Source: Nitrososphaerales archaeon
GTDB taxonomy: Archaea; Thermoproteota; Nitrososphaeria; Nitrososphaerales; JACPRH01
Reading direction: 5' to 3'
Assembly (NCBI GenBank): GCA_030745655.1
Contig: JASLOE010000001.1
Coordinates: 5,351-69,350, forward strand
DNA: 64,000 nt
Shown here piece by piece: positions 2,266 through 41,642 of the stretch. The notes under the pieces are model-generated. The model ran no database searches and was not told the origin of the DNA. It saw nothing but the letters and a program-made list of their open reading frames with translations. The stretch's first letter is position 1; the number at the start of each line of letters is the position of its first letter. Made by a program: the position numbers and the translations under genes.

Positions 2266-3435
2266 TTATACAAACGGATTTTCCCATTTTAGAATGACGT
2301 CAGCAACCTCAGGTCTAATCATTTCAGGAGGAGGTTTTTCACCTTTCAGTAGTATATCCCGAAGCTTGGTACCACTAAACTCCACCCTAACTTCAGGATC
2401 TGGGCATTCTAAATTCTGCGCAGGAGCATGTGGACAAGTTTTATCATTAGCTGAACTTCCACACGTTCTACAATAGAAGAATGATGGAAAAAATAGAGGA
2501 GATATACCTAAATCTGGAAACTTTTCAAAAATTTCTTGAGCTGCATACGGAGGATAGAAATTACCTACCCCGGCATGATCACGTCCCAAAATAAAATGAG
2601 TACAACCATAATTCTTCCTAATTATCGCATGAAAAATAGCTTCTCTAGGTCCGGCATATCGCATCTCAGTTTGAAGAATTGCTAACATTGCACGTTCCTT
2701 AAGATAATAATTATCTATTAGCACACGGTATGTTTGTAGAATTACTTCATCCTTAAAATCACCGGGTTTTTTTCTTCCAATTACTGGATTAATAAAAAGT
2801 CCATCCACAAATGTGAGAGCAGTTTTTTGAACATACTCATGACCCACATGCGGAACATTCCTAGTTTGAAAACCTACAATAGTTTTCCATCCCCTATCAT
2901 CAAAAGATTTTCGAGTTTCAGCAGGAGATAAATGATATCTCGGATACAGAGACTTAGGAGAATCAACTAGATTTATTGTTCCACCCAACAAAATATCTTT
3001 GAGTTTAAAGGCTTCAGTAACTCCAGGGTGATGCATATCAATAGTTCCGTATACTTTTTCAGCTAACTCTTTTTTATTGAATGAATATTTATCTTTAACA
3101 TCCATTGTTGCAATAAATTGGTCACCGGAGCTTAATCTCACAGTATCCCCTATAGATACTTTTTTGGCTTCTTCATCGGCGATATCAAGAATTATAGGGA
3201 TAGTCCAAGCCTTATCATTATTTAATCGCATAGAATCCATTACATTATCAAGGTCATTTTGAACTAGAAATCCTTCAAGTGGACTATAGACACCTGTTGC
3301 TATATTTTCAATCTCTTTTACTCGCCGTTGATTTACTTTTATTTCTAATAGCTCGTTTTTTTCATTTATTAGTTTCTCTTTTACATCATCTTTCAAAACT
3401 CTGTTAATTAGATTTCCACCATGCGGGTTAATCAT
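2266..3435 (-). CDS. sat: Sulfate adenylyltransferase (ATP sulfurylase)
   Basis: Motifs QTRNVPHVGHEYV and GRDHAGVG, with a PUA-like N-terminal part. There is a C-terminal Cys/His cluster (CRTCGSS..KTCPH). Confidence 0.9.
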   Translation of the reverse strand: MINPHGGNLINRVLKDDVKEKLINEKNELLEIKVNQRRVKEIENIATGVYSPLEGFLVQNDLDNVMDSMRLNNDKAWTIPIILDIADEEAKKVSIGDTVRLSSGDQFIATMDVKDKYSFNKKELAEKVYGTIDMHHPGVTEAFKLKDILLGGTINLVDSPKSLYPRYHLSPAETRKSFDDRGWKTIVGFQTRNVPHVGHEYVQKTALTFVDGLFINPVIGRKKPGDFKDEVILQTYRVLIDNYYLKERAMLAILQTEMRYAGPREAIFHAIIRKNYGCTHFILGRDHAGVGNFYPPYAAQEIFEKFPDLGISPLFFPSFFYCRTCGSSANDKTCPHAPAQNLECPDPEVRVEFSGTKLRDILLKGEKPPPEMIRPEVADVILKWENPFV

Positions 3436-3564
3436 CTGAAATTACACCTACTTTACTCTCAAATATCTTACAGTTCAATTAGTAAACACCAATCATATCC
3501 ATCCGAATATTTCAGCATATATATAACTATAGTTATAATCATCATTAATAAACAAACTCTTTAT

Positions 3565-3840
3565 GTGTTGCCTGCACATAGTATAGATGAGATAAAGTTG
3601 CCGATTTCATTCGTTCTTGTAAATAGTGATCCTGAAGTTGAGGAAGAACTGATGGAAGATCTAATAAAAGTAGAAGGAGTTAAAGAGGTTCATTCAGTCT
3701 ATGGAATATATGATTTTATTGTGAAAGTTGAAGCTGAATCTCTAGAAGAATTGAAAAACACAATAACTTGGAAAGTTAGAAGGTTAAGCAAAGTTAAAGC
3801 TAGCGTAACAATGGTTGTCGCTCAATCCCGTACATCTTAA
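3565..3840 (+). CDS. Stand-alone Lrp/AsnC ligand-binding (RAM) domain protein
   Basis: The C-terminal ~85 aa of ORF 3421..3840 (ISFVLVNSDPEVEEEL..VKEVHSVYGIYDFIVKVEAESLEELKNTI) resemble a RAM domain. The ORF's N-terminal part overlaps the sat start and looks non-coding. An in-frame GTG at 3565 lies downstream of an AT-rich TATA-like stretch near 3519-3545. The start is uncertain. Confidence 0.5.
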   Translation: MLPAHSIDEIKLPISFVLVNSDPEVEEELMEDLIKVEGVKEVHSVYGIYDFIVKVEAESLEELKNTITWKVRRLSKVKASVTMVVAQSRTS

Positions 3841-3968: not shown

Positions 3969-4685
3969 TTAGTCTAATTTTGCTTCAATCAGTGCACCCC
4001 ATTTTGTCCACATTTCGTCTTTAAAACCACCACCCTCTGGAAGTTTAGAGACATTTACATTATTCTCTGGAATCAATTCTTTTAATAACGCCTCATAGTT
4101 CCTCCGCCAGTGTCTCTCGTAAACTCCAAGAGAATTTTGTGAGTCAAAAGAATGCCACTCTACAAAATAAATTCTCCGCCGAGCAATTCTGACCATATCA
4201 TTCACTACTTTCCTAATTTTATCTGGACCAATATACATCAGAACCGCATCTGTAAACACAATATCAAAACTATCATTCAAAAACGATTCGAGATCATCTG
4301 CTTTTCCCACTGATAGCTTTACGTTCAATTTACCTTCTTGTTTTAACCATTCGTTTCCGTTTTTTACCGACCATTTGTTGATATCTACACCAGATAAATC
4401 TGCTTCCGGAAATTTCTCAGAAAGCAGATATAAATTAGGTCCATCGCCGCAACCTACTTCAAGCAAATTCTTAATTTTACGAAATTTTGAGATTTTCGCA
4501 ACAAGAAAGCCTCGATGGGGATGATTTAGGGTAGTGGAACCACTTGCATAAGAAGAGGATTGGGAAGCCCATCGTCTCTCTTCAAATTTTGTACCAACAA
4601 GAAATCCTATAATTGACATGAAACCACGGTAAGTCCACCTCACAATTCGATACATTATGGCATACCTTCTTAGAAAAGATATCAA
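3969..4685 (-). CDS. Class I SAM-dependent methyltransferase
   Basis: Motif I LLEVGCGDGPN and a downstream FDIVFTDAVLMY. It is the last gene of the minus-strand glycan operon. The start may be an internal Met. Confidence 0.75.
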   Translation of the reverse strand: MISFLRRYAIMYRIVRWTYRGFMSIIGFLVGTKFEERRWASQSSSYASGSTTLNHPHRGFLVAKISKFRKIKNLLEVGCGDGPNLYLLSEKFPEADLSGVDINKWSVKNGNEWLKQEGKLNVKLSVGKADDLESFLNDSFDIVFTDAVLMYIGPDKIRKVVNDMVRIARRRIYFVEWHSFDSQNSLGVYERHWRRNYEALLKELIPENNVNVSKLPEGGGFKDEMWTKWGALIEAKLD

Positions 4686-4709
4686 TTGTTATCTCAATCT
4701 AGTTAAATT

Positions 4710-5816
4710 TCAATTATAGAAGTTGTGAAGAGAATCAACAACAAAGCCAACATCAGAATCACTGAGCTCAGGGTGCAACGGAAGTGAAAGAACTTCACGA
4801 GAAATCTGTTCTGTTAAAGGTAGATTAAAGTGATCTAAATTCAGAGCTTTGTGTTTATGAAGAGGTTTAGGCCAAGAAACTAAAATTTCTATCCCTTGAT
4901 TGCGAAGATAGGCCACAAGTTCGTCCCGATTATTGGAACGGATCACATAATTTTGATAGACATCATAAAAGTTACCTTCGTTTGGTGCAGGAGGCAATTG
5001 CAACGAAGCTAGGTCGGATAACCCTTCATGGTAGAGGTTTGCTATTTCTCTTCGTCGTTCTATCCATTTGGGTAGGTGATTTAGCTTAATTTTCAGAATT
5101 GCGGCATGTAAATTATCAAGGCGACTATTGAAACCATGAAACAGAAATGCTCCGGTTTCTCTATCTTGGCCATGATCTCTAAGCAAGAATAACTTCTTGG
5201 CGATTTCCTTGTTATTTGTAACTATCATTCCACCATCTCCAAGAGTTCCTAAGATTTTTGCAGGATAGAAGCTGAAACAACCTGTCAAGCCAAAACTACC
5301 AGCTCTACGTCCTTTGTATCGTGCGCCTACTGCTTGTGCAGCATCTTCAATAATATGGAGACCATGATCAGATGCTATTTTCATTATCGTATCCATATCA
5401 CAGATTCTACCATTAAGATGAACAGGAATAATGCCTTTTGTTTTCTCTGTAATTGCTGCTTCAATACAACTTACATCAATATTATGATATTGGTCGATAT
5501 CAACAAGAACTGGCTTTGCATTACATTGAGAAATTGTTGATACTGTTGCAGCAAAAGTATGAGATACTGTAATTACTTCATCACTTTCAGTAATATTAGC
5601 AGCTTTTAATGATAAAAAGAGAGCATCTGTTCCGTTCGCAACTCCTATAGCATACTTTACATCCAAGAACTTGGCGAAATTCTTTTCGAATTCTTTAAGA
5701 TGCCTTCTAAGGATATAGTCACCACCAATTAGCACTTCCTGAATAACAGAATCAACCTCCGATTTGATCTTTCTATAGTGCTCAGGAAAATCTACAAAAC
5801 GGACTCGATACCCCAT
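4710..5816 (-). CDS. DegT/DnrJ/EryC1/StrS-family PLP-dependent sugar aminotransferase
   Basis: Family-typical sequence: GVANGTDAL, IIEDAAQAVGA, and the SFYPAKILG lysine region; 368 aa. Confidence 0.9.
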   Translation of the reverse strand: MGYRVRFVDFPEHYRKIKSEVDSVIQEVLIGGDYILRRHLKEFEKNFAKFLDVKYAIGVANGTDALFLSLKAANITESDEVITVSHTFAATVSTISQCNAKPVLVDIDQYHNIDVSCIEAAITEKTKGIIPVHLNGRICDMDTIMKIASDHGLHIIEDAAQAVGARYKGRRAGSFGLTGCFSFYPAKILGTLGDGGMIVTNNKEIAKKLFLLRDHGQDRETGAFLFHGFNSRLDNLHAAILKIKLNHLPKWIERRREIANLYHEGLSDLASLQLPPAPNEGNFYDVYQNYVIRSNNRDELVAYLRNQGIEILVSWPKPLHKHKALNLDHFNLPLTEQISREVLSLPLHPELSDSDVGFVVDSLHNFYN

Positions 5817-5820
5817 TTTA

Positions 5821-6795
5821 TTACGACACCAATTCTCTAATCTTTGAAATTATTGTCTTAGATGTCGGATAATAAACTCCTTCCAAAGAAGAACTTGCTG
5901 GGGCAGGTGAATCTGGCAACGAAACACGCATAATAGGAGTTTTAAGATACTTGAATGCTTCATTCCCCACTATTGAAGAAACCTCTGCACCAATACCGGA
6001 ACTTGGCCAACTTGCATCAACCACGATAAATCTGCCTGTTTTTTTTACTGAATTTATTAAAATGTCCTTATCTAATGGTTTTACAGAACGCATATCAATA
6101 ACTTCAGTCTCGATTCCTTCATCGGCAAGGCTATCAGCAGCTTTAATCACCTCACCCACCATATATGAAGTTGCAGCTATTGTTACATCTTTTCCATTTC
6201 TTCTTAAAGCCCCTTCTCCTATTGGAACATTAAATAGTTCCTCAGGCACATCATCTTCACTCTCGTAAAGCCAACGATCATCAATATAGATAACAGGACC
6301 ATCATCCTCAACTGCTGAATTTAGGAGACCTTTGGCATCGTAAGCTGAACTAGGCATCACAACTTTTAATCCAGGAATATGTGTAAACATAGCTTGCAAA
6401 CTTTGAGAATGCTGAGCAGCTTGTTCGCCTCCTCTATTTATAATAGTCCAAACGGTCAACGGAACATTCAGCTGACCACCAAACATATAATGCCAACTCC
6501 CAGCGTGATTAATCAATTGATCCATAGCATAATGCATAAAATCCATTCTCGGAAAGAGCAAAACTGGACGCATACCTGCCAAAGCTGCCCCTATTGCCAC
6601 ACCTGTAATGCCGTTTTCAGAAACTGGAGTATCGATAACTCGATTAGAACCAAATTCACTTAGAAGCCCGGTAGTTGTACATCCAACATACCATGGACTA
6701 GTAATTCCTTGACCAATTAAGAATACTCGATCATCCTTCTTCATTAGCTGACGCAAAGTTTGATTTATCGATTTATTATATTGAATTCTTGTCAT
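5821..6795 (-). CDS. ThDP-dependent 2-oxoacid dehydrogenase E1 component, beta subunit-like (transketolase Pyr/C domains)
   Basis: VIDTPVSENGITGVAIGAALAGMRPV and a C-terminal transketolase-like domain; 324 aa. It starts 18 nt downstream of the alpha subunit gene. Confidence 0.85.
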   Translation of the reverse strand: MTRIQYNKSINQTLRQLMKKDDRVFLIGQGITSPWYVGCTTTGLLSEFGSNRVIDTPVSENGITGVAIGAALAGMRPVLLFPRMDFMHYAMDQLINHAGSWHYMFGGQLNVPLTVWTIINRGGEQAAQHSQSLQAMFTHIPGLKVVMPSSAYDAKGLLNSAVEDDGPVIYIDDRWLYESEDDVPEELFNVPIGEGALRRNGKDVTIAATSYMVGEVIKAADSLADEGIETEVIDMRSVKPLDKDILINSVKKTGRFIVVDASWPSSGIGAEVSSIVGNEAFKYLKTPIMRVSLPDSPAPASSSLEGVYYPTSKTIISKIRELVS

Positions 6796-20457: not shown

Positions 20458-21147
20458 ATGTTCAATCTTAAAACACCAGAAAATATTGAGTCACTTCCCA
20501 AGAATATAGTGAAGAAAATTAACAAAAGAATCAAATATGTTAATGATGGAATTTCTAGAATTGAGAAAGCAACAGGAATTACTTACCCACCATATAATAT
20601 TAGGCCAGTGATAATTTTATCAGAAAGTGAGGTTGAATTAGGACAAAGAGGGGTAATATATGCAAGAGTTATTCCAGAAGAAGGGCCAGCTGGTCTTCTT
20701 ATTTCGGTTGAGCTCTCGGCACCTTTAGTTGCATTTGGATTAAAGGGAACAATACAAGCTGTTTTGGCACACGAATTCATGCATTATGTGGAACTTGTAA
20801 GGAAATTTACTACTTTAGATATTCTTTCAGATGAAACTGTAGGTACATTACACGAAACTATTTACTCAGATTACGAGAGATTATACGAACCCAAATGGCT
20901 TTTCCAAGATAGAGGACTAATAAGACTTCTCAATAACAGATTTCTTGATGGACTTGTAGATGATAAATTAAATAAGAATACGTTAAAAAAATGGGTAGAG
21001 AAGGGTCTCCCTTCTGTAACTCTACCTCCAGATGCAAATGTTGTTAGAATTCCCATTGCCGCAATACTAAAAACTAATTTCGACCCGTTGCTAAAGAATA
21101 GGCTTGAAGAACTTGAAAAGATAAGGGCCGTAGATAATGCAAAATAA
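20458..21147 (+). CDS. Putative zinc metallopeptidase-like protein (HExxH), unknown family
   Basis: A single HExxH (AVLAHEFMHYVELV) sits in a 229-aa soluble protein. The gene's 3' end overlaps the next gene by 11 nt. Confidence 0.55.
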   Translation: MFNLKTPENIESLPKNIVKKINKRIKYVNDGISRIEKATGITYPPYNIRPVIILSESEVELGQRGVIYARVIPEEGPAGLLISVELSAPLVAFGLKGTIQAVLAHEFMHYVELVRKFTTLDILSDETVGTLHETIYSDYERLYEPKWLFQDRGLIRLLNNRFLDGLVDDKLNKNTLKKWVEKGLPSVTLPPDANVVRIPIAAILKTNFDPLLKNRLEELEKIRAVDNAK

Positions 21148-22789
21148 ATCAGGTAAAAAAGGGACACTCAGTAAAACGGATACAGAAACATTACTCAGAA
21201 TATCAAAAGAGATATCTTCTAAAAAAACGATTATAGGTGTTGCAGCGTATGGTTCTCAAGTAGCTAATTATGCAACAGAAGATAGTGATTATGATATAAT
21301 TGTTGTGTTAGATAATTATAGTCCTAAAGTAAAATATCGTTACATTAAGGGAGAATTAGAAATATCGGCGCTTCTTGTTGATAAGGAATCAATATTAGCT
21401 GATGCCCAAAAGGCATCTCTTGGAGAATTTGTTGCAGGTAGATTACTTAACATATACTTACCCATTAAAGGTAAAAAATTCTTCAAAGAAGTTGAAAATA
21501 TTATTAAAAAAAGAGTGATAGCTGAATCACTAAATGAGATTGGATCATCTCTGGGTGAATTTTCACAAGAAATATTAATTCCAGTGGAATATTTTCTATA
21601 TGATAAACTCAAGAAACGTTCTTCGATTTATCCTCCTGTTCTTTATAGTTACGCCAAAACTTATGGGGATGAGTTAAGGGCTAAAAACACAGAAGCAGCT
21701 TGTCCAGGATTTCTGGTTGCATTGAAAGACCTAGAATCTAAGAAGTTAATTACTCTGAAAGATGGGTTAGTAAGAATAAAAGATAGTAAATCCAAAGGGT
21801 GGACGACTATTTTTTCAGGAATAATCAAACATACACAAAGAGGGCTAACCCAATATGCTGTCCACGGTTATGCTGGAACAGTTGGTCTCAACATCATAAG
21901 TAAAGAATTGATGTCCAAAATATCTAGAGCAAAGAAGGGATATGAGGTCCCAGAAGTGATAAGAAATCCAAAGTCTCTTTGGAGGCTAAGTGAAGGTGAT
22001 CTTATCGTAGAGGAAGAAGAATGGTTACAGAAAGTTTTTGAACATTTTCAGTTAAAAGGAGATGTTATAACGAATAAGGATAGTATTGGAGATATCTATT
22101 CCTCTTCAAAAGTATATTCTGCTAGCGATAAAGAACAAAATGTAAAGTTCATTGTGAAAAGATTTGTAGACATAAAAGCGATGAAGTGGATTGTTTTGAA
22201 TATCTGGGCATTAATGTCAAAGAGATTCGACATGAGTCCCATATCTAGGCTTTCTAGAGAGTATTCTTCTTTGAAAGAAATTCGAGAAATTGGTCTAAAT
22301 ACACCAAGGGTTTTGTTAGTTGCATTTAATCAAAGAATACTCGTAACTGAATTCATAGAAGGTTCAAATTTGGGAGAGATACTTTCAAAGGTTTTCAAAG
22401 GAGAAAAAAATATGATAAAATACATTAGAATTTATGGAGAAGAATTAGGAAAAGTACATAAATCTGGGTACACACTTGGAGACACTAAACCAAGCAATTC
22501 TATTCTTTCAAAAGGTAAGATATTCTTAATTGATCTTGAGCAAGCTGCAAAGAATGGGGATAAGAGCTGGGATATAGCTGAATTCATTTATTATTCATCA
22601 AAACTTACTTTGGATACTAACGCTGCAAAACAATTGGTTGGAGAATTTCTGGACGGATACTTAGAATATGGTGATAATAAATCTGTAAAAGATGCTCATA
22701 AACTGAAGTATCTTGCTCCATTTCAACCAATAATAGCACCAAATGTTGCTGCAGCAGTTAGAAAAGTAATGAAGAAACGAGCAGAATAA
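21137..22789 (+). CDS. Fusion protein: N-terminal nucleotidyltransferase-fold domain plus C-terminal RIO/Bud32-like kinase domain
   Basis: N-terminus: GVAAYGSQVANYATEDSDYDIIVVLD (a GS..DxD NTase signature) and EFVAGRLLNIYLP. C-terminus: VKFIVKRF (Lys), LGDTKPSN catalytic loop and LIDLEQA metal-binding segment. Confidence 0.7.
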   Translation: MQNKSGKKGTLSKTDTETLLRISKEISSKKTIIGVAAYGSQVANYATEDSDYDIIVVLDNYSPKVKYRYIKGELEISALLVDKESILADAQKASLGEFVAGRLLNIYLPIKGKKFFKEVENIIKKRVIAESLNEIGSSLGEFSQEILIPVEYFLYDKLKKRSSIYPPVLYSYAKTYGDELRAKNTEAACPGFLVALKDLESKKLITLKDGLVRIKDSKSKGWTTIFSGIIKHTQRGLTQYAVHGYAGTVGLNIISKELMSKISRAKKGYEVPEVIRNPKSLWRLSEGDLIVEEEEWLQKVFEHFQLKGDVITNKDSIGDIYSSSKVYSASDKEQNVKFIVKRFVDIKAMKWIVLNIWALMSKRFDMSPISRLSREYSSLKEIREIGLNTPRVLLVAFNQRILVTEFIEGSNLGEILSKVFKGEKNMIKYIRIYGEELGKVHKSGYTLGDTKPSNSILSKGKIFLIDLEQAAKNGDKSWDIAEFIYYSSKLTLDTNAAKQLVGEFLDGYLEYGDNKSVKDAHKLKYLAPFQPIIAPNVAAAVRKVMKKRAE

Positions 22790-34156: not shown

Positions 34157-34294
34157 CGGGCCCGCTGGGATTTGAACCCAGGATTTCCGGCTTCGGAGGC
34201 TTACACATCTCTTCAGCGCCCTAATCCTTTCTATAGTTACCTTGGATTCCATCAGCTAACTATTCTAGGTGAATACTGACTAGGCCACGAGCCC
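34157..34294 (-). tRNA. tRNA-Arg (anticodon CCG) interrupted by two non-canonical introns; no encoded CCA
   Basis: Hand-folded cloverleaf. Acceptor GGGCTCG/CGGGCCC; D stem GCCT/GGGC; D loop AGTCA^GGATTA. Anticodon stem CTG^GC/GCCGG; loop CTCCGAA; variable AAATC. T arm CTGGG-TTCAAAT-CCCAG; discriminator G. The intervening segments are 34228-34276 (49 nt, in the D loop) and 34201-34213 (13 nt, position 29/30). Confidence 0.75.
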
Positions 34295-34314
34295 AGAATG
34301 CAAATATAATTTTG

Positions 34315-34325
34315 TATTAATAAAA
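34315..34325 (-). promoter_or_regulatory. Candidate TATA box for the tRNA-Arg gene
   Basis: The minus strand reads TTTTATTAATA, centred about 26 nt upstream of the tRNA 5' end (34294). This is the typical archaeal spacing. Confidence 0.4.
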
Positions 34326-34453: not shown

Positions 34454-35179
34454 ATGAAAAGTAGAATGATGAAGTGTTTTGCACTAGATGTTGATGGGAC
34501 AATAGCTGATAATGAAGGACACCTAGACCTTGAAGCAGCATCTATGTTGAGGAGTCTTGCAAAATTAGGATATCAAATAATATTTGTAAGTGGTCGTTCT
34601 GCATGGGAACTCATTATTCTGGCAAAATATTTAGGTACTTCTTTGGTATCGGTTGGAGAAAATGGTGGAGTTTTATCCACATCTCCTCTAGATATTCAGG
34701 TACTTGGAGATAAATCAAAAACTGAAACGGCTTATGATTATCTTTCTAATAAAATAAAAGGGGTTGAAATAAAACCAACAATGCCTCGCTTCACGGAAGT
34801 TGTATTAAAAAGAAATTTCGATATAGAAAATGGGAGAAAACTGTTGTCTGAGAACAATATGCCAGTGAATCTCATCGATAGTACATTTGCATATCATATC
34901 ACCGATAAAACGGTCAATAAAGGGACAGGGTTAAAGTTGGCACTTGAAAAACTCAAGATTGACCCTGCAGAAACCATAGCAATTGGAGATAGTGATACAG
35001 ATATACCAATGTTCAAATTATGCAGATATAGTATAGCAACAGGAAAACCTACAAATGGTGCAAAAGAGACTGCCAATTATACTGTAAATAGTAATCCGGG
35101 TGAAGGGCTTGTCGATGCTTTCCAATTATCTTTCCAAAAGATCCTGAATACAAACCTTGAGGAGGAATTAAAAAAATGA
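34454..35179 (+). CDS. HAD-IIB (Cof-type) phosphatase, archaeal phosphoglycolate phosphatase-like
   Basis: Motif I ALDVDGTIAD, FVSGRS and motif IV GDSDTDIPMF. Confidence 0.8.
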   Translation: MKSRMMKCFALDVDGTIADNEGHLDLEAASMLRSLAKLGYQIIFVSGRSAWELIILAKYLGTSLVSVGENGGVLSTSPLDIQVLGDKSKTETAYDYLSNKIKGVEIKPTMPRFTEVVLKRNFDIENGRKLLSENNMPVNLIDSTFAYHITDKTVNKGTGLKLALEKLKIDPAETIAIGDSDTDIPMFKLCRYSIATGKPTNGAKETANYTVNSNPGEGLVDAFQLSFQKILNTNLEEELKK

Positions 35180-37086
35180 GTTTTAGAGACTTTAAAGATC
35201 AAGTCAAGAAATGTATGATGGACTCGCTAGCAATAAATGATCTACCCGAACTAAGTTTTGAACCAATAGAACCACCAAGACCTGAGTATGGAGATCTATC
35301 AGTAAGTGTCTGCATTACAATAGCTAACAAAACAGGAAAAAAACCTACTGAGGTAGCGGAAAAAGTAGCTTCAAAAATCAAAATACCGGATAATTCTATT
35401 ATTGATAAAATCTCTGTTCACCCACAGGGATACATTAATTTCACAAACAAATATGCAAAATACGTTTATCAAACTCTTAGGAGTGTACTTGATAACTCTG
35501 ATTACGGGAGAGTGCAAATAGGAAATAACGACAAAATTGGGATAGAACATACAAGCGTTAACCCGAATAAAGCTCTTCATTATGGCCACTTGCGAAATGT
35601 TGTTCTTGGAGATTCAATCAAACGAATCCTAGAATTCACAGGGCATAATGTCCAGATCTTAAATTATGTTGACGACTCAGGTTTGCAGGTAGCTGACCTC
35701 GTAGTTGGATTTAGGCAAGCAGGTTTTCCCCTTGAACCAACAGGAAATATGAAGTTTGACCAATATTGTGGAGATATAGTTTATGTAAAAATAAACGAGT
35801 TGTATAACTCTAGAAAAGATCTAATAGAAGCCCAAAAAAAAGTTCTCCAAGAGCTTGAACAACAAGAAAGTGAAATAGCCAAATTCTCACATAAGATTAC
35901 TGGGCGAATCTTAAGAGAGCAACTCAAAACCTGTTGGCGAATCGGAGCACGATATGATCTTCTTAATTTTGAATCCCATATTCTTCAAACAAATATGTGG
36001 AACGACATTTTTTCTCAACTCAAATCAAAAACTTTAGTTGAAAAAGTATCCAACGGTAAAAATAATGGATGTTGGATTGTCAGAATTAAAGGAGAAAAGG
36101 AGGGAGAAGAAAAAGTTCTTCTGAGAAGTGACGGTACAGCAACATACATGGCGAAAGATATTCCATATGCTGCCTGGAAATTAGGTATTATCAAAGATAA
36201 ATTTGGGTACAAATTATTCCCAGAACAACCAGAAGGAGCAAATCTTTGGGCTACTACCACTGAAAAAACTGATATGAACCATCCTGAATTTGCACCTTAT
36301 TCCAAATCAATCACCGTAATAGATGTAAGGCAAGGCAGATTACAGAGAATTATCGCAATAATACTTTCAAACCTTTCAGAAAAAGAAGATCTAAAACGAT
36401 ATATTCACTTAGGGTATGAAGTTGTATTTCTAAGTGGAAAAACTGCTGAAGAAATAGGTGTCACTTCTGAAAGAAAACAAATCGTAAGTATGTCCGGTCG
36501 AAAAGGCATCTATGTAAATGCAGATGAAGTTCTTGACAAACTACATAAAAGAGCATTTGAAGAAACAAAAAAGAGGAATCTCGATGAAACTGATGAATGG
36601 TTACATGAAACTGCTGAAAAAATCATGATTGCAGCAGTAAGATTTGATCTTCTGAAACAGGATTTAGAAAAGACCATTGTCTTTGACCTTAACCGTGCAC
36701 TTGCACTTGAGGGCGAAACTGGACCATATCTTCAATATACTTATGCCCGTGCAGCACGAATAATTGAGAAGTCAGGTATTACATCATCGATCAAGAGTGA
36801 ATATGCAAAGAAACTTACAGATTCATCTGAAATAGCTCTAATTAAAGAAATATCTAAATTCGATCTTATTGTAGAGGATGCTGCAAATAATCTTGCACCA
36901 AAAATTGTCGCACGATATTTGTTTCATCTTGTTTCACTTTTTAATGCTTTTTATGAAAAAATACCTGTGCTTAAAGAGAAGGATGAAGATACCAAATTAG
37001 GAAGAATTGCAATGATTAAAGCTTTTCAAGTTGTTGTTCGAAATGGACTTCAAATTCTTGGAATAAATGCAACTGAAAAGATCTGA
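35176..37086 (+). CDS. argS: Arginyl-tRNA synthetase
   Basis: HIGH-type motif NPNKALHYGHLRN, class I architecture and a C-terminal DALR anticodon-binding domain; 636 aa. It overlaps the HAD gene by 4 nt. Confidence 0.95.
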   Translation: MSFRDFKDQVKKCMMDSLAINDLPELSFEPIEPPRPEYGDLSVSVCITIANKTGKKPTEVAEKVASKIKIPDNSIIDKISVHPQGYINFTNKYAKYVYQTLRSVLDNSDYGRVQIGNNDKIGIEHTSVNPNKALHYGHLRNVVLGDSIKRILEFTGHNVQILNYVDDSGLQVADLVVGFRQAGFPLEPTGNMKFDQYCGDIVYVKINELYNSRKDLIEAQKKVLQELEQQESEIAKFSHKITGRILREQLKTCWRIGARYDLLNFESHILQTNMWNDIFSQLKSKTLVEKVSNGKNNGCWIVRIKGEKEGEEKVLLRSDGTATYMAKDIPYAAWKLGIIKDKFGYKLFPEQPEGANLWATTTEKTDMNHPEFAPYSKSITVIDVRQGRLQRIIAIILSNLSEKEDLKRYIHLGYEVVFLSGKTAEEIGVTSERKQIVSMSGRKGIYVNADEVLDKLHKRAFEETKKRNLDETDEWLHETAEKIMIAAVRFDLLKQDLEKTIVFDLNRALALEGETGPYLQYTYARAARIIEKSGITSSIKSEYAKKLTDSSEIALIKEISKFDLIVEDAANNLAPKIVARYLFHLVSLFNAFYEKIPVLKEKDEDTKLGRIAMIKAFQVVVRNGLQILGINATEKI

Positions 37087-37128: not shown

Positions 37129-37776
37129 TTATTGATTGAATGGTTTGTTCTCAGATAGAAATTTGTATGTTTGAGTTTCACTTTCTTTATCCATAAATTC
37201 TTCTAAATCTTCTTGAAGATCGAGATCCAGCATCACTGAATATAATTTGAGTATTGATACAGGAATTTTCTGTTCTGACGCATATTTTTTGTGTGTTGCA
37301 TAACTTGAAAAATCATATGAAGTCTTGATTACATCTGGGGGTGAACGAAGTAAAGCATTCGTACCATCCATACGCTTAGAAGGAACGATTACAACAGATT
37401 GCGTATTTCTAGAAGAATTAACTATCTTTTTAATATCTCCAGGTTTTATAAGTGGAATATCTGCAGGAATAATTATGGTCGAAGAAGCTCCATTATTCAA
37501 ACAATATTCATTCGCAATTTTTACAGCAAAATTAACACCCCGTTGTTCTTTTTCCAATATTGTAGAAAATCCGAATGATTTTGTTAGATTTACGACTTCT
37601 TGTTCAGGAGTAACTACAATAGTCGATTCTATTTCGTCTGATGATGCAATTGATTTTAGAACATCATGAAGCATAAAGATGGATAGATTTATTCGCTCTT
37701 CTTTATTTAGAAAATTGGAGAGTCTTAACTTGGCAAAATCTAATTTCTTCACTGGTATTATGGCGTGTAGATTCAA
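37129..37776 (-). CDS. cofC: 2-phospho-L-lactate guanylyltransferase (F420 biosynthesis)
   Basis: AIIPVKKLDFAKLRLS, IIIPADIPLI and MDGTNALL match the CofC pattern. Confidence 0.75.
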   Translation of the reverse strand: MNLHAIIPVKKLDFAKLRLSNFLNKEERINLSIFMLHDVLKSIASSDEIESTIVVTPEQEVVNLTKSFGFSTILEKEQRGVNFAVKIANEYCLNNGASSTIIIPADIPLIKPGDIKKIVNSSRNTQSVVIVPSKRMDGTNALLRSPPDVIKTSYDFSSYATHKKYASEQKIPVSILKLYSVMLDLDLQEDLEEFMDKESETQTYKFLSENKPFNQ

Positions 37777-37956
37777 ATAAGTACATTCTTCTGATTTAGG
37801 CTACTTATATTGTCTTCTTGATTGCATTTAGATAACATATTTTTTTCACAATAAAATAAAAAGTAATATGTTCTATTTTTGATAAAGTTTCACCATAGAT
37901 CTCAAATAAATAATAGGTTTAATAATTAAAAAATAATAATCTATGATGTGCAATAA

Positions 37957-38889
37957 TTGTCTGATTATGCTATAGAGACTACTGACTTGATAAAAAAATA
38001 CGGTAGTCGTGTAGCTGTAAATCAGTTAAATTTGAAGGTGAAAGTAGGCGAAATTCATGGTTTCCTTGGACCCAACGGAGCAGGAAAAAGCACCACAATA
38101 AAGATGCTCGTGGGTTTATTAAAACCAACATCAGGATCCATTAAAATTTTTGAACAAGATGCCGCAGGAGATAAACCTCATATTCGCCAAAGAATGGGTT
38201 ATTTATCAGAACTTCCAAGTTATCCACAGCACTTGAGTGGAAATGAGCTCCTAGATGTTTATGGTCGTATGTATGGGATGTCAAAAGAATCAAGAAAACA
38301 AAGAATTCCAGAGTTAATAGAGAAGGTCGGTCTTGAGGGAAGAGGAAAAGATAGAATTGGTGGATATAGTAAGGGAATGCAGCAAAGAATCGGACTGGCT
38401 CAAGCAATGATAAATGATCCTGAAATGCTAATCTTGGATGAGCCAAGCATCGGACTGGATCCTGTAGGCATGGTGGAGATGAGGAAACTTATAAAGGGAA
38501 TAGCAAAGAGGGGTACTACAATATTTTTTTCTTCTCATCTCTTATCTGAAGTTACTCAGATATGTGATCGCATTACAATAATGAATAAAGGGATAACTGT
38601 TGCCTCAGGTTCTCTTAATGAAATTTCTGCATTGTCAAAGAACAGAAGAATAGTTGTTGAAGTGGATAAGGTGAATAATAAAATCTTACAATCGCTACAG
38701 AATCTTAAATTGGCAAAAGTTGAGATGAAAGGAAAGACATACACGATACATCTTGATCAAAATAAAAAAGATGCAAGACCTATTGTTTCTCAAGCTATTA
38801 CTAAGTCAGGCGGAGTGATAGTGGAAATGCATGAGGAAGGTAAGGGATTGGAGGATACTTTTCTAGATTTGTTGAAGGTGGAATCTTAG
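37957..38889 (+). CDS. ABC transporter ATP-binding protein (ABC-2/DrrA-like)
   Basis: Walker A GPNGAGKST, signature YSKGMQQR and Walker B LILDEPSIGLD. A TTG start is inferred. Confidence 0.9.
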   Translation: MSDYAIETTDLIKKYGSRVAVNQLNLKVKVGEIHGFLGPNGAGKSTTIKMLVGLLKPTSGSIKIFEQDAAGDKPHIRQRMGYLSELPSYPQHLSGNELLDVYGRMYGMSKESRKQRIPELIEKVGLEGRGKDRIGGYSKGMQQRIGLAQAMINDPEMLILDEPSIGLDPVGMVEMRKLIKGIAKRGTTIFFSSHLLSEVTQICDRITIMNKGITVASGSLNEISALSKNRRIVVEVDKVNNKILQSLQNLKLAKVEMKGKTYTIHLDQNKKDARPIVSQAITKSGGVIVEMHEEGKGLEDTFLDLLKVES

Positions 38890-38891
38890 AT

Positions 38892-39836
38892 TTGACAGAA
38901 AAACAACAGGGAAGTTGGACAGGACGATTTATGGCTATATTGTATTATGAGCTATTATGGAATCTCAGAAAGAAGAAGATGGTGGGTGTTCTTATCCTTG
39001 CATTTCTGATTGTTACCCTTATTGCTGTTGTCCCTTGGTTAATAGCAGAATACACGAATGCTCCTTTTGATAAGGATCCATTGTTTGTTATTGATAATGT
39101 TTCTACAATGGCAGGGGGTTTTACGATGTTTCTTTTTGCAGTTGCTGTAGGTATGAATATGGTTTCTGGAGAATTTGAGAGTCAGACAATAATTCCTTTG
39201 TTAACTAAACCTGTTTCAAGAAACTTGGTTATTTTAGCCAAGATTGTAGCTGGACTAATAACGGTAGTTGCTGCTTACATATTCCTAGCTGGTTATATAA
39301 TAACCGCTGGATTTCTCATCTATGGACCACAAGAATTGTTGCACCTCTTGCCATTGGGTTTCTCAGGTGCAGTTGTTGCGACATTTATTTGGTTATCATT
39401 AGCAGTATTTTTCAGCTCAGTATTCAAGAGCTCCAACATTGCAGTTATGGGTTCATTAGGCACATTTATTGGGCTTATAATGGTCGGAACCATTCTTGCG
39501 TCATTCGGTCAGCCATTGATACTTCTGTATACACCTGGAGATGGAGCAGTCGGTATAAGCGGAGGTTGTGATTCACTTTCTGGAATGGGAGATGGAATAA
39601 GAACAGGAACAAATGAGTTAGGCAGACTCCTAGTTGAATGGGTTCAAGAACCGGATAGAATAATAGATATCTGTGGAATGAGTTTCATTAGTGATGGGCC
39701 TCCATCAGCAATACAATTATTATCGGATCCAATCTCAACTGTGGCGTTGCGAAGTTTAGCAGTGGGGTTAACGTATATGATAACATTTTTTGTGATTGGA
39801 TGGTTTGCATTTAGACGAGCACAAATAACCGATTAG
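38892..39836 (+). CDS. ABC-2 type transporter permease
   Basis: About 6 TM segments. It starts 2 nt after the ATPase gene. The start (TTG or a downstream ATG) is uncertain. Confidence 0.7.
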   Translation: MTEKQQGSWTGRFMAILYYELLWNLRKKKMVGVLILAFLIVTLIAVVPWLIAEYTNAPFDKDPLFVIDNVSTMAGGFTMFLFAVAVGMNMVSGEFESQTIIPLLTKPVSRNLVILAKIVAGLITVVAAYIFLAGYIITAGFLIYGPQELLHLLPLGFSGAVVATFIWLSLAVFFSSVFKSSNIAVMGSLGTFIGLIMVGTILASFGQPLILLYTPGDGAVGISGGCDSLSGMGDGIRTGTNELGRLLVEWVQEPDRIIDICGMSFISDGPPSAIQLLSDPISTVALRSLAVGLTYMITFFVIGWFAFRRAQITD

Positions 39837-39937
39837 AGATAACTGTTCTAACTTCTGAATAAATGTTCTAAACGTTGACATGATATATTGCATAATCCCA
39901 TTAGGCTGTTGAAGTAAAATAGAGTAATGAAAATCTG

Positions 39938-40852
39938 TTAGACACCAATTACAAATTTAGCTAACTTTTGCTCATCATCTTCTGTCCTCATCATAATATC
40001 TGTAACAGAAACTTTAACACCTATTTTTTCAATATCAGTTATCATTGCTTTATCATTCTCATCTATTATCATTTTACTAACAAAGCTAGAATAAAGTTCA
40101 GTAATGCCTTTCGGTGAAACATCAACTCCAATGCTCCGTAGAAACTTATCTGCAGGCCCACTCACAGAATTATCACATATTATAGGACTAATTGCAACAA
40201 CACGATCACGGGCACGTATCAATGCTTCTTTTATCCCCAAAATATGAGTCATGGGACATATACTTGAAACGGGATTAGCAGGGCAAATAATCACTTTCTC
40301 AGCCTCAAGTATGGTATTCACTACATTGGGTGCAGGTTGAGATTTCTTGGAACCTACATATTTTACTCCAATTACATCAGGTTTTCCTTTCAGCTTAACC
40401 CAGAATTCTTGAAGATGCATTTCCCCTTGAGGAGTATCTATTAGAGTCTCAACATGATCGTTAGAGGCAGGCAATACCGTCTGAGCAATATCCATTCTTT
40501 TTGCTATAACATTAGTAGCTTCAGATAAAGTCCATCCTGCATTAAGCAAATTAGTTCGTACAAGATGCAAAGCAAGATCCTTATCACCTAATTTAAACCA
40601 ATCATCAGATCCATACTTCGATACCTGATGCAGAAAATTATAGGTATCATTCTTAATGCCCCATCCCTGACCAGAATTAAGTTGGTCTGACAATGTGTAT
40701 AGAATGGTGTCGATATCAGGACAAATATGGAGTCCATGTAATTTTATATTATCTCCAACATTTACAATAATAGTAATATTGTCAGTCACAGTTTTGACAA
40801 GACCACGAACAAGTTTAGCTGACCCTGTCCCACCAGCTAGAACAGCTAACAT
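39938..40852 (-). CDS. cofD: LPPG:FO 2-phospho-L-lactate transferase (F420 biosynthesis)
   Basis: N-terminal LAGGTGSAKLVRGL; CofD/YvcK-family length and pattern. Confidence 0.9.
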   Translation of the reverse strand: MLAVLAGGTGSAKLVRGLVKTVTDNITIIVNVGDNIKLHGLHICPDIDTILYTLSDQLNSGQGWGIKNDTYNFLHQVSKYGSDDWFKLGDKDLALHLVRTNLLNAGWTLSEATNVIAKRMDIAQTVLPASNDHVETLIDTPQGEMHLQEFWVKLKGKPDVIGVKYVGSKKSQPAPNVVNTILEAEKVIICPANPVSSICPMTHILGIKEALIRARDRVVAISPIICDNSVSGPADKFLRSIGVDVSPKGITELYSSFVSKMIIDENDKAMITDIEKIGVKVSVTDIMMRTEDDEQKLAKFVIGV

Positions 40853-40871
40853 TCTTTATTTCACCAAAAAA

Positions 40872-41642
40872 TTATCTGAACAGATCTCTTGAGACCTTTC
40901 TTACCAATTTACGGGCAGAACCCTTGCCTGGCTCATATTTGTAACCTCTAACAACTACGACAGGTATCTTGTTCAATTTCCCCATGACTAATTCAGATGC
41001 AGAAGCTATTTCATCAGCTACAGCCATATTGGTAGCACTCAATGCATTACCATAGGTATCATTAGAACCCACATAGGAGAACAGTGGAATAATACCAGCA
41101 ACTCCAATTGCAATATTGATTTGACCTTCACGCCAAGGCCGTCCAAAAGTATCAGTAATTATCACAGCAACATCAACATTTGCTTTTGATTTCAAAGTTT
41201 GTTTTATACGCCTAGCAGATTTATCGGAATTCTTGGGAAGAAGAACCAAAGTTCCAGGTTCAATATTTGAGGCATCAATCCCTCCATTTGCACACACAAA
41301 ACCTTGACGTGTCTCAACTATTACTAGACCCTTTACCATTCGAACAATTCTTTTTGCTTCAGATAAAATAACTTCAACTTTCCTAGGGTCTAATCCAAGA
41401 ACTTTTGAAAATTTCAAAGCACTTACAGATGGTTCAACATCTTCAAGATGAACAATCCGTCCTTCAGCTTTTGATACTATTTTTGAGGTTATTGCAATTA
41501 TATCTCCATCTGCAAGAACAGCCCCTTGCTTTGAGGCTGCTTTAATGATAATATCCGCAATATCATCTCCATTCTTTACGGTAGGTATTCCCTCTAAACC
41601 AGTAATAATAATTTGATTCACTTTCACAACAATCTCTTTCAA
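40872..41642 (-). CDS. cofE: Coenzyme F420-0:L-glutamate ligase
   Basis: ITSKIVSKAEGR, CANGGIDASN and ITDTFGRPWREGQ. Confidence 0.85.
   Translation of the reverse strand: MKEIVVKVNQIIITGLEGIPTVKNGDDIADIIIKAASKQGAVLADGDIIAITSKIVSKAEGRIVHLEDVEPSVSALKFSKVLGLDPRKVEVILSEAKRIVRMVKGLVIVETRQGFVCANGGIDASNIEPGTLVLLPKNSDKSARRIKQTLKSKANVDVAVIITDTFGRPWREGQINIAIGVAGIIPLFSYVGSNDTYGNALSATNMAVADEIASASELVMGKLNKIPVVVVRGYKYEPGKGSARKLVRKVSRDLFR

Follow-up and report, generated by a model that had tools for sequence, protein, structure and literature searches.

How many introns does a transfer RNA (tRNA) gene carry when standard gene finders do not see it, and is such a gene still functional? The question arises from a locus on the minus strand of a 64-kb stretch of Nitrososphaerales DNA (64,000 nucleotides in all, hereafter the window), in which an initial annotation had proposed a tRNA-Arg(CCG) gene with two noncanonical introns, one of 49 nt in the D loop and one of 13 nt between positions 29 and 30, and none at 37/38. 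The whole gene, a precursor body of 138 nt without an encoded CCA, lies at 34157..34294 (-), and its assignment comes from an ARAGORN call on the spliced sequence, from orthologues, and from an intronless syntenic orthologue. On these comparisons, it is almost certainly a real, functional, spliced tRNA-Arg gene with inserts at the D loop and at 29/30. By its pairing and covariation, the 13-nt insert is a textbook noncanonical bulge-helix-bulge (BHB) intron. The 49-nt insert makes a poor single intron and rather probably consists of a 15-nt and a 34-nt BHB unit that abut at 17/17a and share a palindromic CTAG. The two interrupted sites of the initial annotation stand, and on the two-unit reading its count of two introns would rise to three.

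An interrupted tRNA-Arg(CCG) gene

Deletion of 34228-34276 and 34201-34213 leaves a 76-nt sequence that ARAGORN calls as tRNA-Arg(CCG) with a regular cloverleaf, containing the 7-bp acceptor stem, G18G19, U33, A37, the G53-C61 pair, and the TTCAAAT T loop. The identity and anticodon first assigned to the gene are thereby borne out, as is the claim that its conserved elements are intact after splicing; the D-loop and 29/30 sites of interruption are confirmed by the spliced cloverleaf together with the orthologues described below. Within exon 3 the 7-nt anticodon loop CTCCGAA is unbroken (U33, C34 C35 G36, and a purine at 37), in agreement with the proposed absence of a 37/38 intron. ARAGORN, which the annotation had suggested as a check, accepts the spliced sequence and misses the raw gene: run with default settings and with -i, it found no tRNA anywhere in the unspliced 64-kb window, nor did Rfam at its gathering score. 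With the Rfam cutoff relaxed to E<=10 on raw DNA, the 3′ half (exon 3) alone was detected, at 17.5 bits against a threshold of 29, and a T-arm scan of the window gave no further tRNA. The D loop of the spliced product is AGUCAGGAUUA, reading A14 G15 U16 C17 A17a G18 G19 A20, and the product carries both A20 and C35. These two bases are arginine identity elements for arginyl-tRNA synthetase (ArgRS) in bacteria and yeast, and the phylum here may differ. The G+C content is 66% in the mature part and 31-35% in the inserts, in a window of 35.6%.

Read on the minus strand from 34294 to 34157, the gene is laid out as GGGCTCGTGGCCTAGTCA, 49 nt, GGATTAGGGCGCTG, 13 nt, and GCCTCCGAAGCCGG...CGGGCCCG. Divided segment by segment, with the D-loop insert taken as units a and b, it reads GGGCTCGTGGCCTAGTC (exon 1), AGTATTCACCTAGAA (a), TAGTTAGCTGATGGAATCCAAGGTAACTATAGAA (b), AGGATTAGGGCGCTG (exon 2), AAGAGATGTGTAA (29/30 intron), and GCCTCCGAAGCCGGAAATCCTGGGTTCAAATCCCAGCGGGCCCG (exon 3). 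Exon 1 (34278..34294, -) holds tRNA positions 1-17, namely the acceptor 5′ strand, U8, G9, the D-stem 5′ strand GCCT, and A14 G15 U16 C17; its end at C17 is set by the BHB cutting rule given below (bulge U16 C17/A, the slash marking the cut). Exon 2 (34214..34228, -) spans positions 17a-29, with A17a G18 G19 A20 U U A21, the D-stem 3′ strand GGGC, G26, and C27 U28 G29. Exon 3 (34157..34200, -) supplies positions 30-73 in 44 nt: the rest of the anticodon arm with CCG, the variable loop AAAUC, the T arm, the acceptor 3′ strand, and the discriminator G. Upstream of position 1, at -31 to -21, the sequence contains an A/T-rich TATA-like box, TTTTATTAATA (34315..34325, -), which we take as a putative archaeal promoter; a box at about the same place, -31 to -22, is present in all lineages (L002, L067, L075, L020; contigs are given by L numbers).

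Orthologues were collected by a metagenome scan anchored on exon sequence, with 0-30 nt allowed at 29/30, and from contigs with ArgRS homologues. Another 15 contigs, drawn from five diverged lineages, carry this gene interrupted in the same way. The window gene has an exact match in five contigs, two close variants are represented by L042/L049 and L064/L065, and four further diverged lineages (L002, L067, L075, and L020/L069) all carry both inserts. Where known, the ArgRS of the diverged lineages is 65-71% identical; L020 was grouped with L069 by tRNA sequence. In L021 and L028 the 29/30 intron stands alone, with no D-loop insert. In L071 (ArgRS 57%) an uninterrupted 76-nt tRNA-Arg(CCG), scored by the Rfam tRNA model at 63.6 bits, occupies the same place beside the genes for a HAD-family hydrolase and ArgRS. 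The spliced window product aligns with this intronless gene without a gap (60/76 identical), and the spliced products of the interrupted orthologues likewise align gaplessly at 58-62 identical positions. Cutting by the BHB rule reduces each of the eight distinct orthologous sequences from the five lineages to 76 nt (71 nt for L002, which is truncated at its 3′ end), and their identity to the window gene is 89-100% in exons and 47-81% in introns and inserts. The contrast in G+C, the recurrence of the interruptions in 15 contigs, and the gapless intronless orthologue together argue that the gene is not a chance resemblance. A single syntenic locus that has no intron in L071, the 29/30 intron alone in L021 and L028, and both inserts in five lineages lends itself, as a small natural series, to the study of how introns are gained and lost.

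The 13-nt intron at 29/30

The BHB motif comprises a 4-bp helix with two flanking 3-nt bulges, and in canonical pre-tRNA the first two anticodon bases lie in the helix (PMC4090602). From this geometry follows a cutting rule by which the second base of one bulge is the last exon base X and that of the other is the last intron base Y, X-5..X-2 pairs with Y-5..Y-2 in the central helix, the outer helix runs from X-6:Y+2, and the inner helix runs from X+2:Y-6. We applied this rule at fixed boundaries and scored the motifs against shuffled introns, in place of a permissive scan.

The intron at 34201..34213 (-), AAGAGATGTGTAA, has a near-canonical hBHBh′ motif by pairing, covariation, and shuffles. 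Its boundaries are the sole ones compatible with the mature anticodon stem. The central helix is complete, with G24 C25 G26 C27 paired to GUGU (GCGC:GUGU), the bulges are UG/A and AA/G, a closing A-U follows, and the outer helix has 3 bp (A21-U33, G22-C32, and G23-C31); the inner helix varies from 1 to 4 bp across orthologues. Over 10 orthologues, 80/80 cells of the motif are paired, a fraction that falls to 17-55% when the partners are slid by 1-3 columns. Three of the central pairs alternate between G-U and G-C (or between C-G and U-G), and AU, CG, and UA all occur as the closing pair. The motif was matched by 0.09% of shuffled introns. The BHB motifs that the initial annotation had left to be checked are thus clear for this intron and poor for the 49-nt segment taken whole.

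Two probable units in the D-loop insert

The 49-nt deletion can be placed in three equivalent ways (C/A, A/G, and G/G) that yield the same product. The annotation was right that the D-loop boundary is ambiguous, though not in limiting the ambiguity to 1 nt (G/G), and the BHB rule shifts its intron by one base, from 34228-34276 to 34229-34277. Even in this best placement, 17/18 to 66/67 of the precursor (34277-34229), the insert makes a poor BHB motif as one intron: three of four central pairs form, the outer helix is 1 bp, the inner helix is one G.U with the next position unpaired in 7/8 sequences, covariation is absent, and 5% of shuffles do equally well. Two blocks, CACCTAGAATAG and AACTATAG, are near-constant between lineages whose intron sequence has otherwise diverged, and their conservation would be explained if the insert were two BHB units.

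Unit a (34263..34277, -; 15 nt, AGTATTCACCTAGAA), delimited by pairing, shuffles, and RNAalifold, comprises a hairpin (G-C and U-A around the loop AUUC), then CTAG and AA. Its length is 15-16 nt across orthologues, ending in CTAG and two bases, and this CTAG, being a self-complementary palindrome, can pair with C12-G15 of exon 1. The 5′ site, U16 C17/A, falls in a 3-nt bulge closed by the unit's own hairpin, of which the first pair is always G-C and the second is UA, CG, or UG and broken in L002 alone. With a full central helix (4/4) and an inner helix of 2-3 bp (2 bp in the window), 96% of cells are paired, and about 0.1% of shuffles are equal. Unit b (34229..34262, -; 34 nt in the window and 31-36 nt across orthologues) begins directly after a and is defined by pairing, shuffles, and compensatory changes. 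It consists of an inner helix AGUUA/UAACU, a variable loop, AUAG, and AA, and its 3′ end (AUAG, CUAG, or CUGG, then two bases) finds its partner in the CTAG of unit a, or in that of the exon once a has been removed. The central helix has 3-4 of 4 pairs (3/4 in the window, with a G.A), the inner helix has 5-7 bp (5 in the window) with compensatory changes UA<->CG and AU<->GC in two pairs, 87.5% of cells are paired, and again about 0.1% of shuffles are equal. Removal of the units in either order leaves the other with the same or a better motif and ends in the same 76-nt tRNA. Given no structure input, RNAalifold recovered the exon-CTAG:intron-CTAG helix, the a hairpin, the b inner helix, and the central helix of the 29/30 intron. 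Single-sequence minimum free energy (MFE) folds of L042, L067, and L075 include the a motif, and MFE structures vary among orthologues. In a test for relaxed hBH/HBh′ motifs, both 5′ sites were well flanked and the 3′ bulges had an outer helix of 0-1 bp alone.

Competing explanations of the locus

Several results weigh against two abutting units. The permissive all-against-all BHB scan of the 138-nt precursor returned about 70 candidates and was unspecific, so that the motif is specific at fixed boundaries alone. The 0-1-bp outer helix leaves the 3′ bulges of both units barely closed, 5/8 sequences show a G.A mismatch in the central helix of b, and the central helix of a is an invariant palindrome with no covariation signal, uninformative because it never varies. 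Folded as isolated window segments at 37 C, the a motif is unfavored (z = 0.13) and the b hairpin alone stands out (z = -2.45). Among the recovered orthologues a and b were never found apart, although independent introns might be expected to separate, and the 54 window open reading frames (ORFs) of >=150 aa include no match to the splicing endonuclease EndA (PF01974/PF02778) or to RtcB. The constant co-occurrence of a and b is equally what a single intron would show. Removal of all 49 nt in one step, which we regard as less likely than not, would use a relaxed, bulge-helix-loop (BHL)-like motif in which the exon CTAG pairs with the 3′ AUAG, a 3-nt bulge holds the 3′ site, and a large loop holds the 5′ site; the internal CCTAGAA and its hairpin would then be no more than a passive remnant, perhaps of a small tandem duplication. 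Such pairing with AUAG, CUAG, or CUGG is available in every orthologue (3-4/4 plus one outer C-G), alpha2beta2 enzymes accept relaxed hBH/HBh′/BHL sites (PMC4090602, PMC4033280), and a census that included 11 thaumarchaeal genomes reports no three-intron tRNA among them (PMC8450103). The 5′ site of a single intron, however, has no closing helix, and 5% of shuffles match it; conservation of CACCTAGAATAG and of its upstream hairpin, the latter with a compensatory change, persists amid diverged sequence; and the consensus fold picks the a motif instead. On balance we favor two BHB units; the two readings lead to an identical mature tRNA. Cutting at the middle site, 34263/34262, may occur on the favored reading, a step that goes beyond the sequence evidence.

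The internal CCTAGAA could also be the true D-arm exon, released by removal of a 15-nt intron within positions 10-15 and of a 34-nt intron to give the D loop AGAAAGGAUUA. L021 and L028, which lack the D-loop intron, do have the D loop AGAAUGGAUCA, exactly as the internal copy of L002 would yield, and of the two copies the internal one is the better conserved. We nevertheless reject this arrangement as hardly credible: checked by hand, no boundary inside the direct repeat gives a BHB, the palindromic part alone providing a helix that fixes the cut at 17/18, and in the internal copy of the window gene, L002, and L075 an A replaces G10 and would break the G10-C25 pair of the D stem. A decaying pseudogene whose inserts are not removed, with an intact tRNA-Arg(CCG) elsewhere in the genome, would account for the failure of standard tRNA finders at the locus. 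It is very improbable when all conserved positions and pairs are intact after splicing, when exons are far more constrained than inserts over five lineages, when the splice motifs are conserved with covariation and the promoter-like box and synteny are conserved too, and when archaeal genomes usually have one gene per anticodon (PMC3293823); the 76-nt products, the exon constraint, and the A/T box across lineages exclude it for practical purposes. Least probable of all is retention of the long insert as a functional small RNA, such as the C/D-box guide in the tRNA-Trp intron of Euryarchaeota. Unit b of the window has GCUGAUGG, which resembles overlapping D-box and C-box motifs (C RUGAUGA, D CUGA). 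This element lies in the variable loop, occurs in the window clade alone, and is absent from L002, L067, L075, L020, and L069, and Rfam gives no small nucleolar RNA or small RNA above noise; the guide was rejected for want of conservation of the motif.

Possible origin and proposed processing of the inserts

The full proposal that an abutting BHB intron pair at 17/17a makes this the first reported three-intron tRNA of Nitrososphaerota and that unit a arose by tandem duplication of 15-16 nt at the junction of the exon with intron b is unlikely as a whole, though not greatly so. The duplicated piece of exon would carry the palindrome CTAG, whose two copies would pair to form a 4-bp helix with two 3-nt bulges; the duplicate could on that account be excised at once, and its excision would restore the original length. 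The internal CCTAGAA equals the exon of orthologues without a D-loop intron (in L021 and L028, ...GCCTAGAA followed directly by TGGATCA), and both CCTAGAA-type copies are followed by AG. These hints of duplication are inseparable from structural constraint, and the origin is speculative. If true, it would be a route of intron birth that needs no mobile element. As to transposition, neither the window nor the other genes of the retrieved loci contained a further copy of the introns; three viral-contig matches to the intron pattern were dismissed as chance matches in coding DNA.

Processing might proceed as follows. Driven by the TATA-like box, some 26 nt upstream, transcription would give a precursor of at least 138 nt, in which an archaeal splicing endonuclease would cut after the second base of each 3-nt BHB bulge. 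In the primary transcript, the partner of exon C12-G15 would be the CTAG close to the end of unit a, with the bulge at the 5′ site closed by the a hairpin. Alternatively, the CTAG of a, or that of the exon once a is gone, would pair with the AUAG at the end of b, beside the 5-7-bp inner helix of b. Because the abutting units share one palindromic CTAG, either order of removal would work. The exons would be joined by an RtcB-type ligase, and CCA, which is not encoded, would be added after transcription. We infer the endonuclease type and the order of cuts; according to reviews, the Thaumarchaeota EndA is of the alpha2beta2 type, and both BHB geometry and independent hBH/HBh′ splice sites have been described (PMC4090602). 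Two BHB units with one palindrome would be a simple substrate for studying an alpha2beta2 endonuclease on competing or sequential motifs.

Genomic neighborhood and host lineage

On its 3′ side the tRNA gene is followed by archaeal housekeeping genes (aIF5B, NDK, L7Ae, and polyprenyl synthase). On its 5′ side, divergently oriented, are the genes for the HAD-family hydrolase and ArgRS at 34454-37086 (+), which overlap by 4 nt (35176-35179) and for that reason probably form one operon; beyond them are CofC, CofD, and CofE. The tRNA gene lies about 160 nt from this pair and about 0.9 kb from the ArgRS gene itself. The neighborhood of tRNA and cognate synthetase is kept in L002, L065, L071, and L075, and in L067 and L069 the tRNA is about 0.8-0.9 kb off on the same side of HAD/ArgRS. 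No tRNA sequence was obtained from L066, L073, and L080, where the contigs end too early, and in L068, L070, and L074 the region upstream of the HAD gene lacks a tRNA. Related Nitrososphaerota contigs contain further tRNA genes with heavy interruption. In L072 a 135-nt tRNA gene with anticodon loop CTCCTAA and several inserts lies upstream of HAD/ArgRS (about 1480-1615, +), and in four lineages a CCA-encoding tRNA downstream of ArgRS has a D-loop insert of about 19 nt and a 37/38-type insert (L068 about 4440-4625, L072 about 6080-6260, L073 about 2400-2585, and L075 about 4650-4835, all +). Elsewhere in the window, a coenzyme F420 biosynthesis cluster at 37129-41642 comprises CofC (37129-37776, -), CofD (39938-40852, -), and the F420 gamma-glutamyl ligase CofE (40872-41642, -), with an ABC-2 transporter pair among them, and a 550-aa ORF at 21137-22789 (+) shows the unusual pairing of an N-terminal Pol-beta-type nucleotidyltransferase with a C-terminal RIO-kinase-like domain, on weak Pfam matches (E about 1e-7 to 2e-6).

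A search of species-representative genomes using the 3′ exon returned two matches, one an identical gene in a Nitrososphaerales metagenome-assembled genome (MAG) from the eastern tropical North Pacific and the other a diverged copy in the Nitrososphaerota MAG XS84Bin3. The window ArgRS is about 50% identical to homologues source-named Nitrososphaera or Nitrosomirales, its nearest relatives are 94%, 83%, and 70% identical, and an exact-protein look-up returned no match. The ArgRS identities point to a poorly sampled marine lineage of Nitrososphaerota (Thaumarchaeota), MAG-only, as the host. Since ARAGORN and Rfam miss the gene, MAGs of this lineage will seem to lack tRNA-Arg(CCG) unless the search is BHB-aware.

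The tRNA 3′ end as a putative integration site

Five metagenome or MAG contigs (L001, L014, L018, L044, and L054) agree with the window at 98-99% identity for 2-10 kb of the HAD/ArgRS side, reaching position 34296, and have no similarity to it 3′ of the tRNA (34157 and below; L001 2229-3784). This pattern of near-identity on the 5′ side and none on the 3′ side marks the tRNA 3′ end as a breakpoint that varies between strains, as is typical of sites where mobile elements integrate. Directly after the tRNA, L001 (about 2300-3620, +), L014, L042, and L067 have an ORF of about 390-400 aa, a putative integrase in L001 and L014 by weak matches to PHROG_1 (E = 4e-6 and 8e-4) and to Pfam Phage_integrase (E = 0.004, below the cutoff). 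The L001 flank is 85% identical to that of L067 and 96% identical to that of L042. With the ArgRS region of L067 just about 73% identical to the window, the 85% between the L001 and L067 flanks suggests that the post-tRNA element moves horizontally. At the same spot other strains have a Schlafen-like helicase (L049), a uracil-DNA glycosylase (UDG)-like protein (L044), or DUF6884 (L018), which are defense-like genes.

L079, an SSV1-like fusellovirus contig of 15,465 bp, encodes a D-335 integrase (ORF 961-1968, -; Pfam PF16795 and PF07935), inside which attP, the viral attachment (att) site (1727-1770, +), is a 44-nt copy of tRNA-Arg(CCG) positions 30-73. All introns of the window gene lie 5′ of the att-like segment, with the 29/30 intron at its exact 5′ edge. 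It is tempting to tie this placement of the introns to strain-variable integration at the gene, a link that is speculation drawn from sequence positions.

Comparison with known systems

The gene belongs to a type that is already well known and common in its phylum, and nothing here overturns current understanding. Crenarchaeota and Thaumarchaeota have tRNA genes with multiple noncanonical introns, some so close together that one must go before the next BHB forms (PMC8450103), and the likeness to thaumarchaeal multi-intron tRNAs noted in the initial annotation agrees with that literature. The tRNAscan-SE 2.0 census (PMC8450103, Table S7) lists 107 noncanonical introns, 39 two-intron genes, and zero three-intron genes in 11 thaumarchaeal genomes with 498 tRNA genes, and 39 two-intron genes in 11 genomes make the present one ordinary for the phylum. 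The census genes and the window gene share the same phylum, the same kind of gene, small protein-spliced noncanonical introns, and the need for a dedicated BHB model for detection. The window gene differs from the census in that it would be a three-intron gene if the D-loop insert is two units, and its host lineage is probably outside those genomes. The possible novelty is the abutting of two units at one site through a shared palindrome.

Three-intron genes are confined to Thermoproteales in the census (PMC8450103). There, as in tRNA-Pro(UGG) of Pyrobaculum islandicum with introns at 25/26, 37/38, and 56/57, up to three BHB/hBH/HBh′ introns likewise interrupt one tRNA, some needing ordered removal (PMC8450103, PMC4090602). 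The window gene is from a different phylum, its units abut at one site and share the palindromic CTAG, and it has no canonical 37/38 intron. Compared with that canonical, strict BHB intron, the 29/30 intron has the same geometry (a 4-bp helix, two 3-nt bulges, and a cut after the second bulge base), but it sits in the anticodon stem, and the exon strand of its central helix is G24-C27 rather than positions 32-35; in this position its BHB would compete with the D stem and the anticodon stem. The attachment site of SSV1, 44 bp long (PMC3293823), also lies in tRNA-Arg(CCG), and attP spans exactly what is exon 3 here, with 38/44 positions identical. The host of SSV1 is of the Sulfolobales and not the Thaumarchaeota, and that the att edge and the 29/30 intron coincide may be fortuitous.

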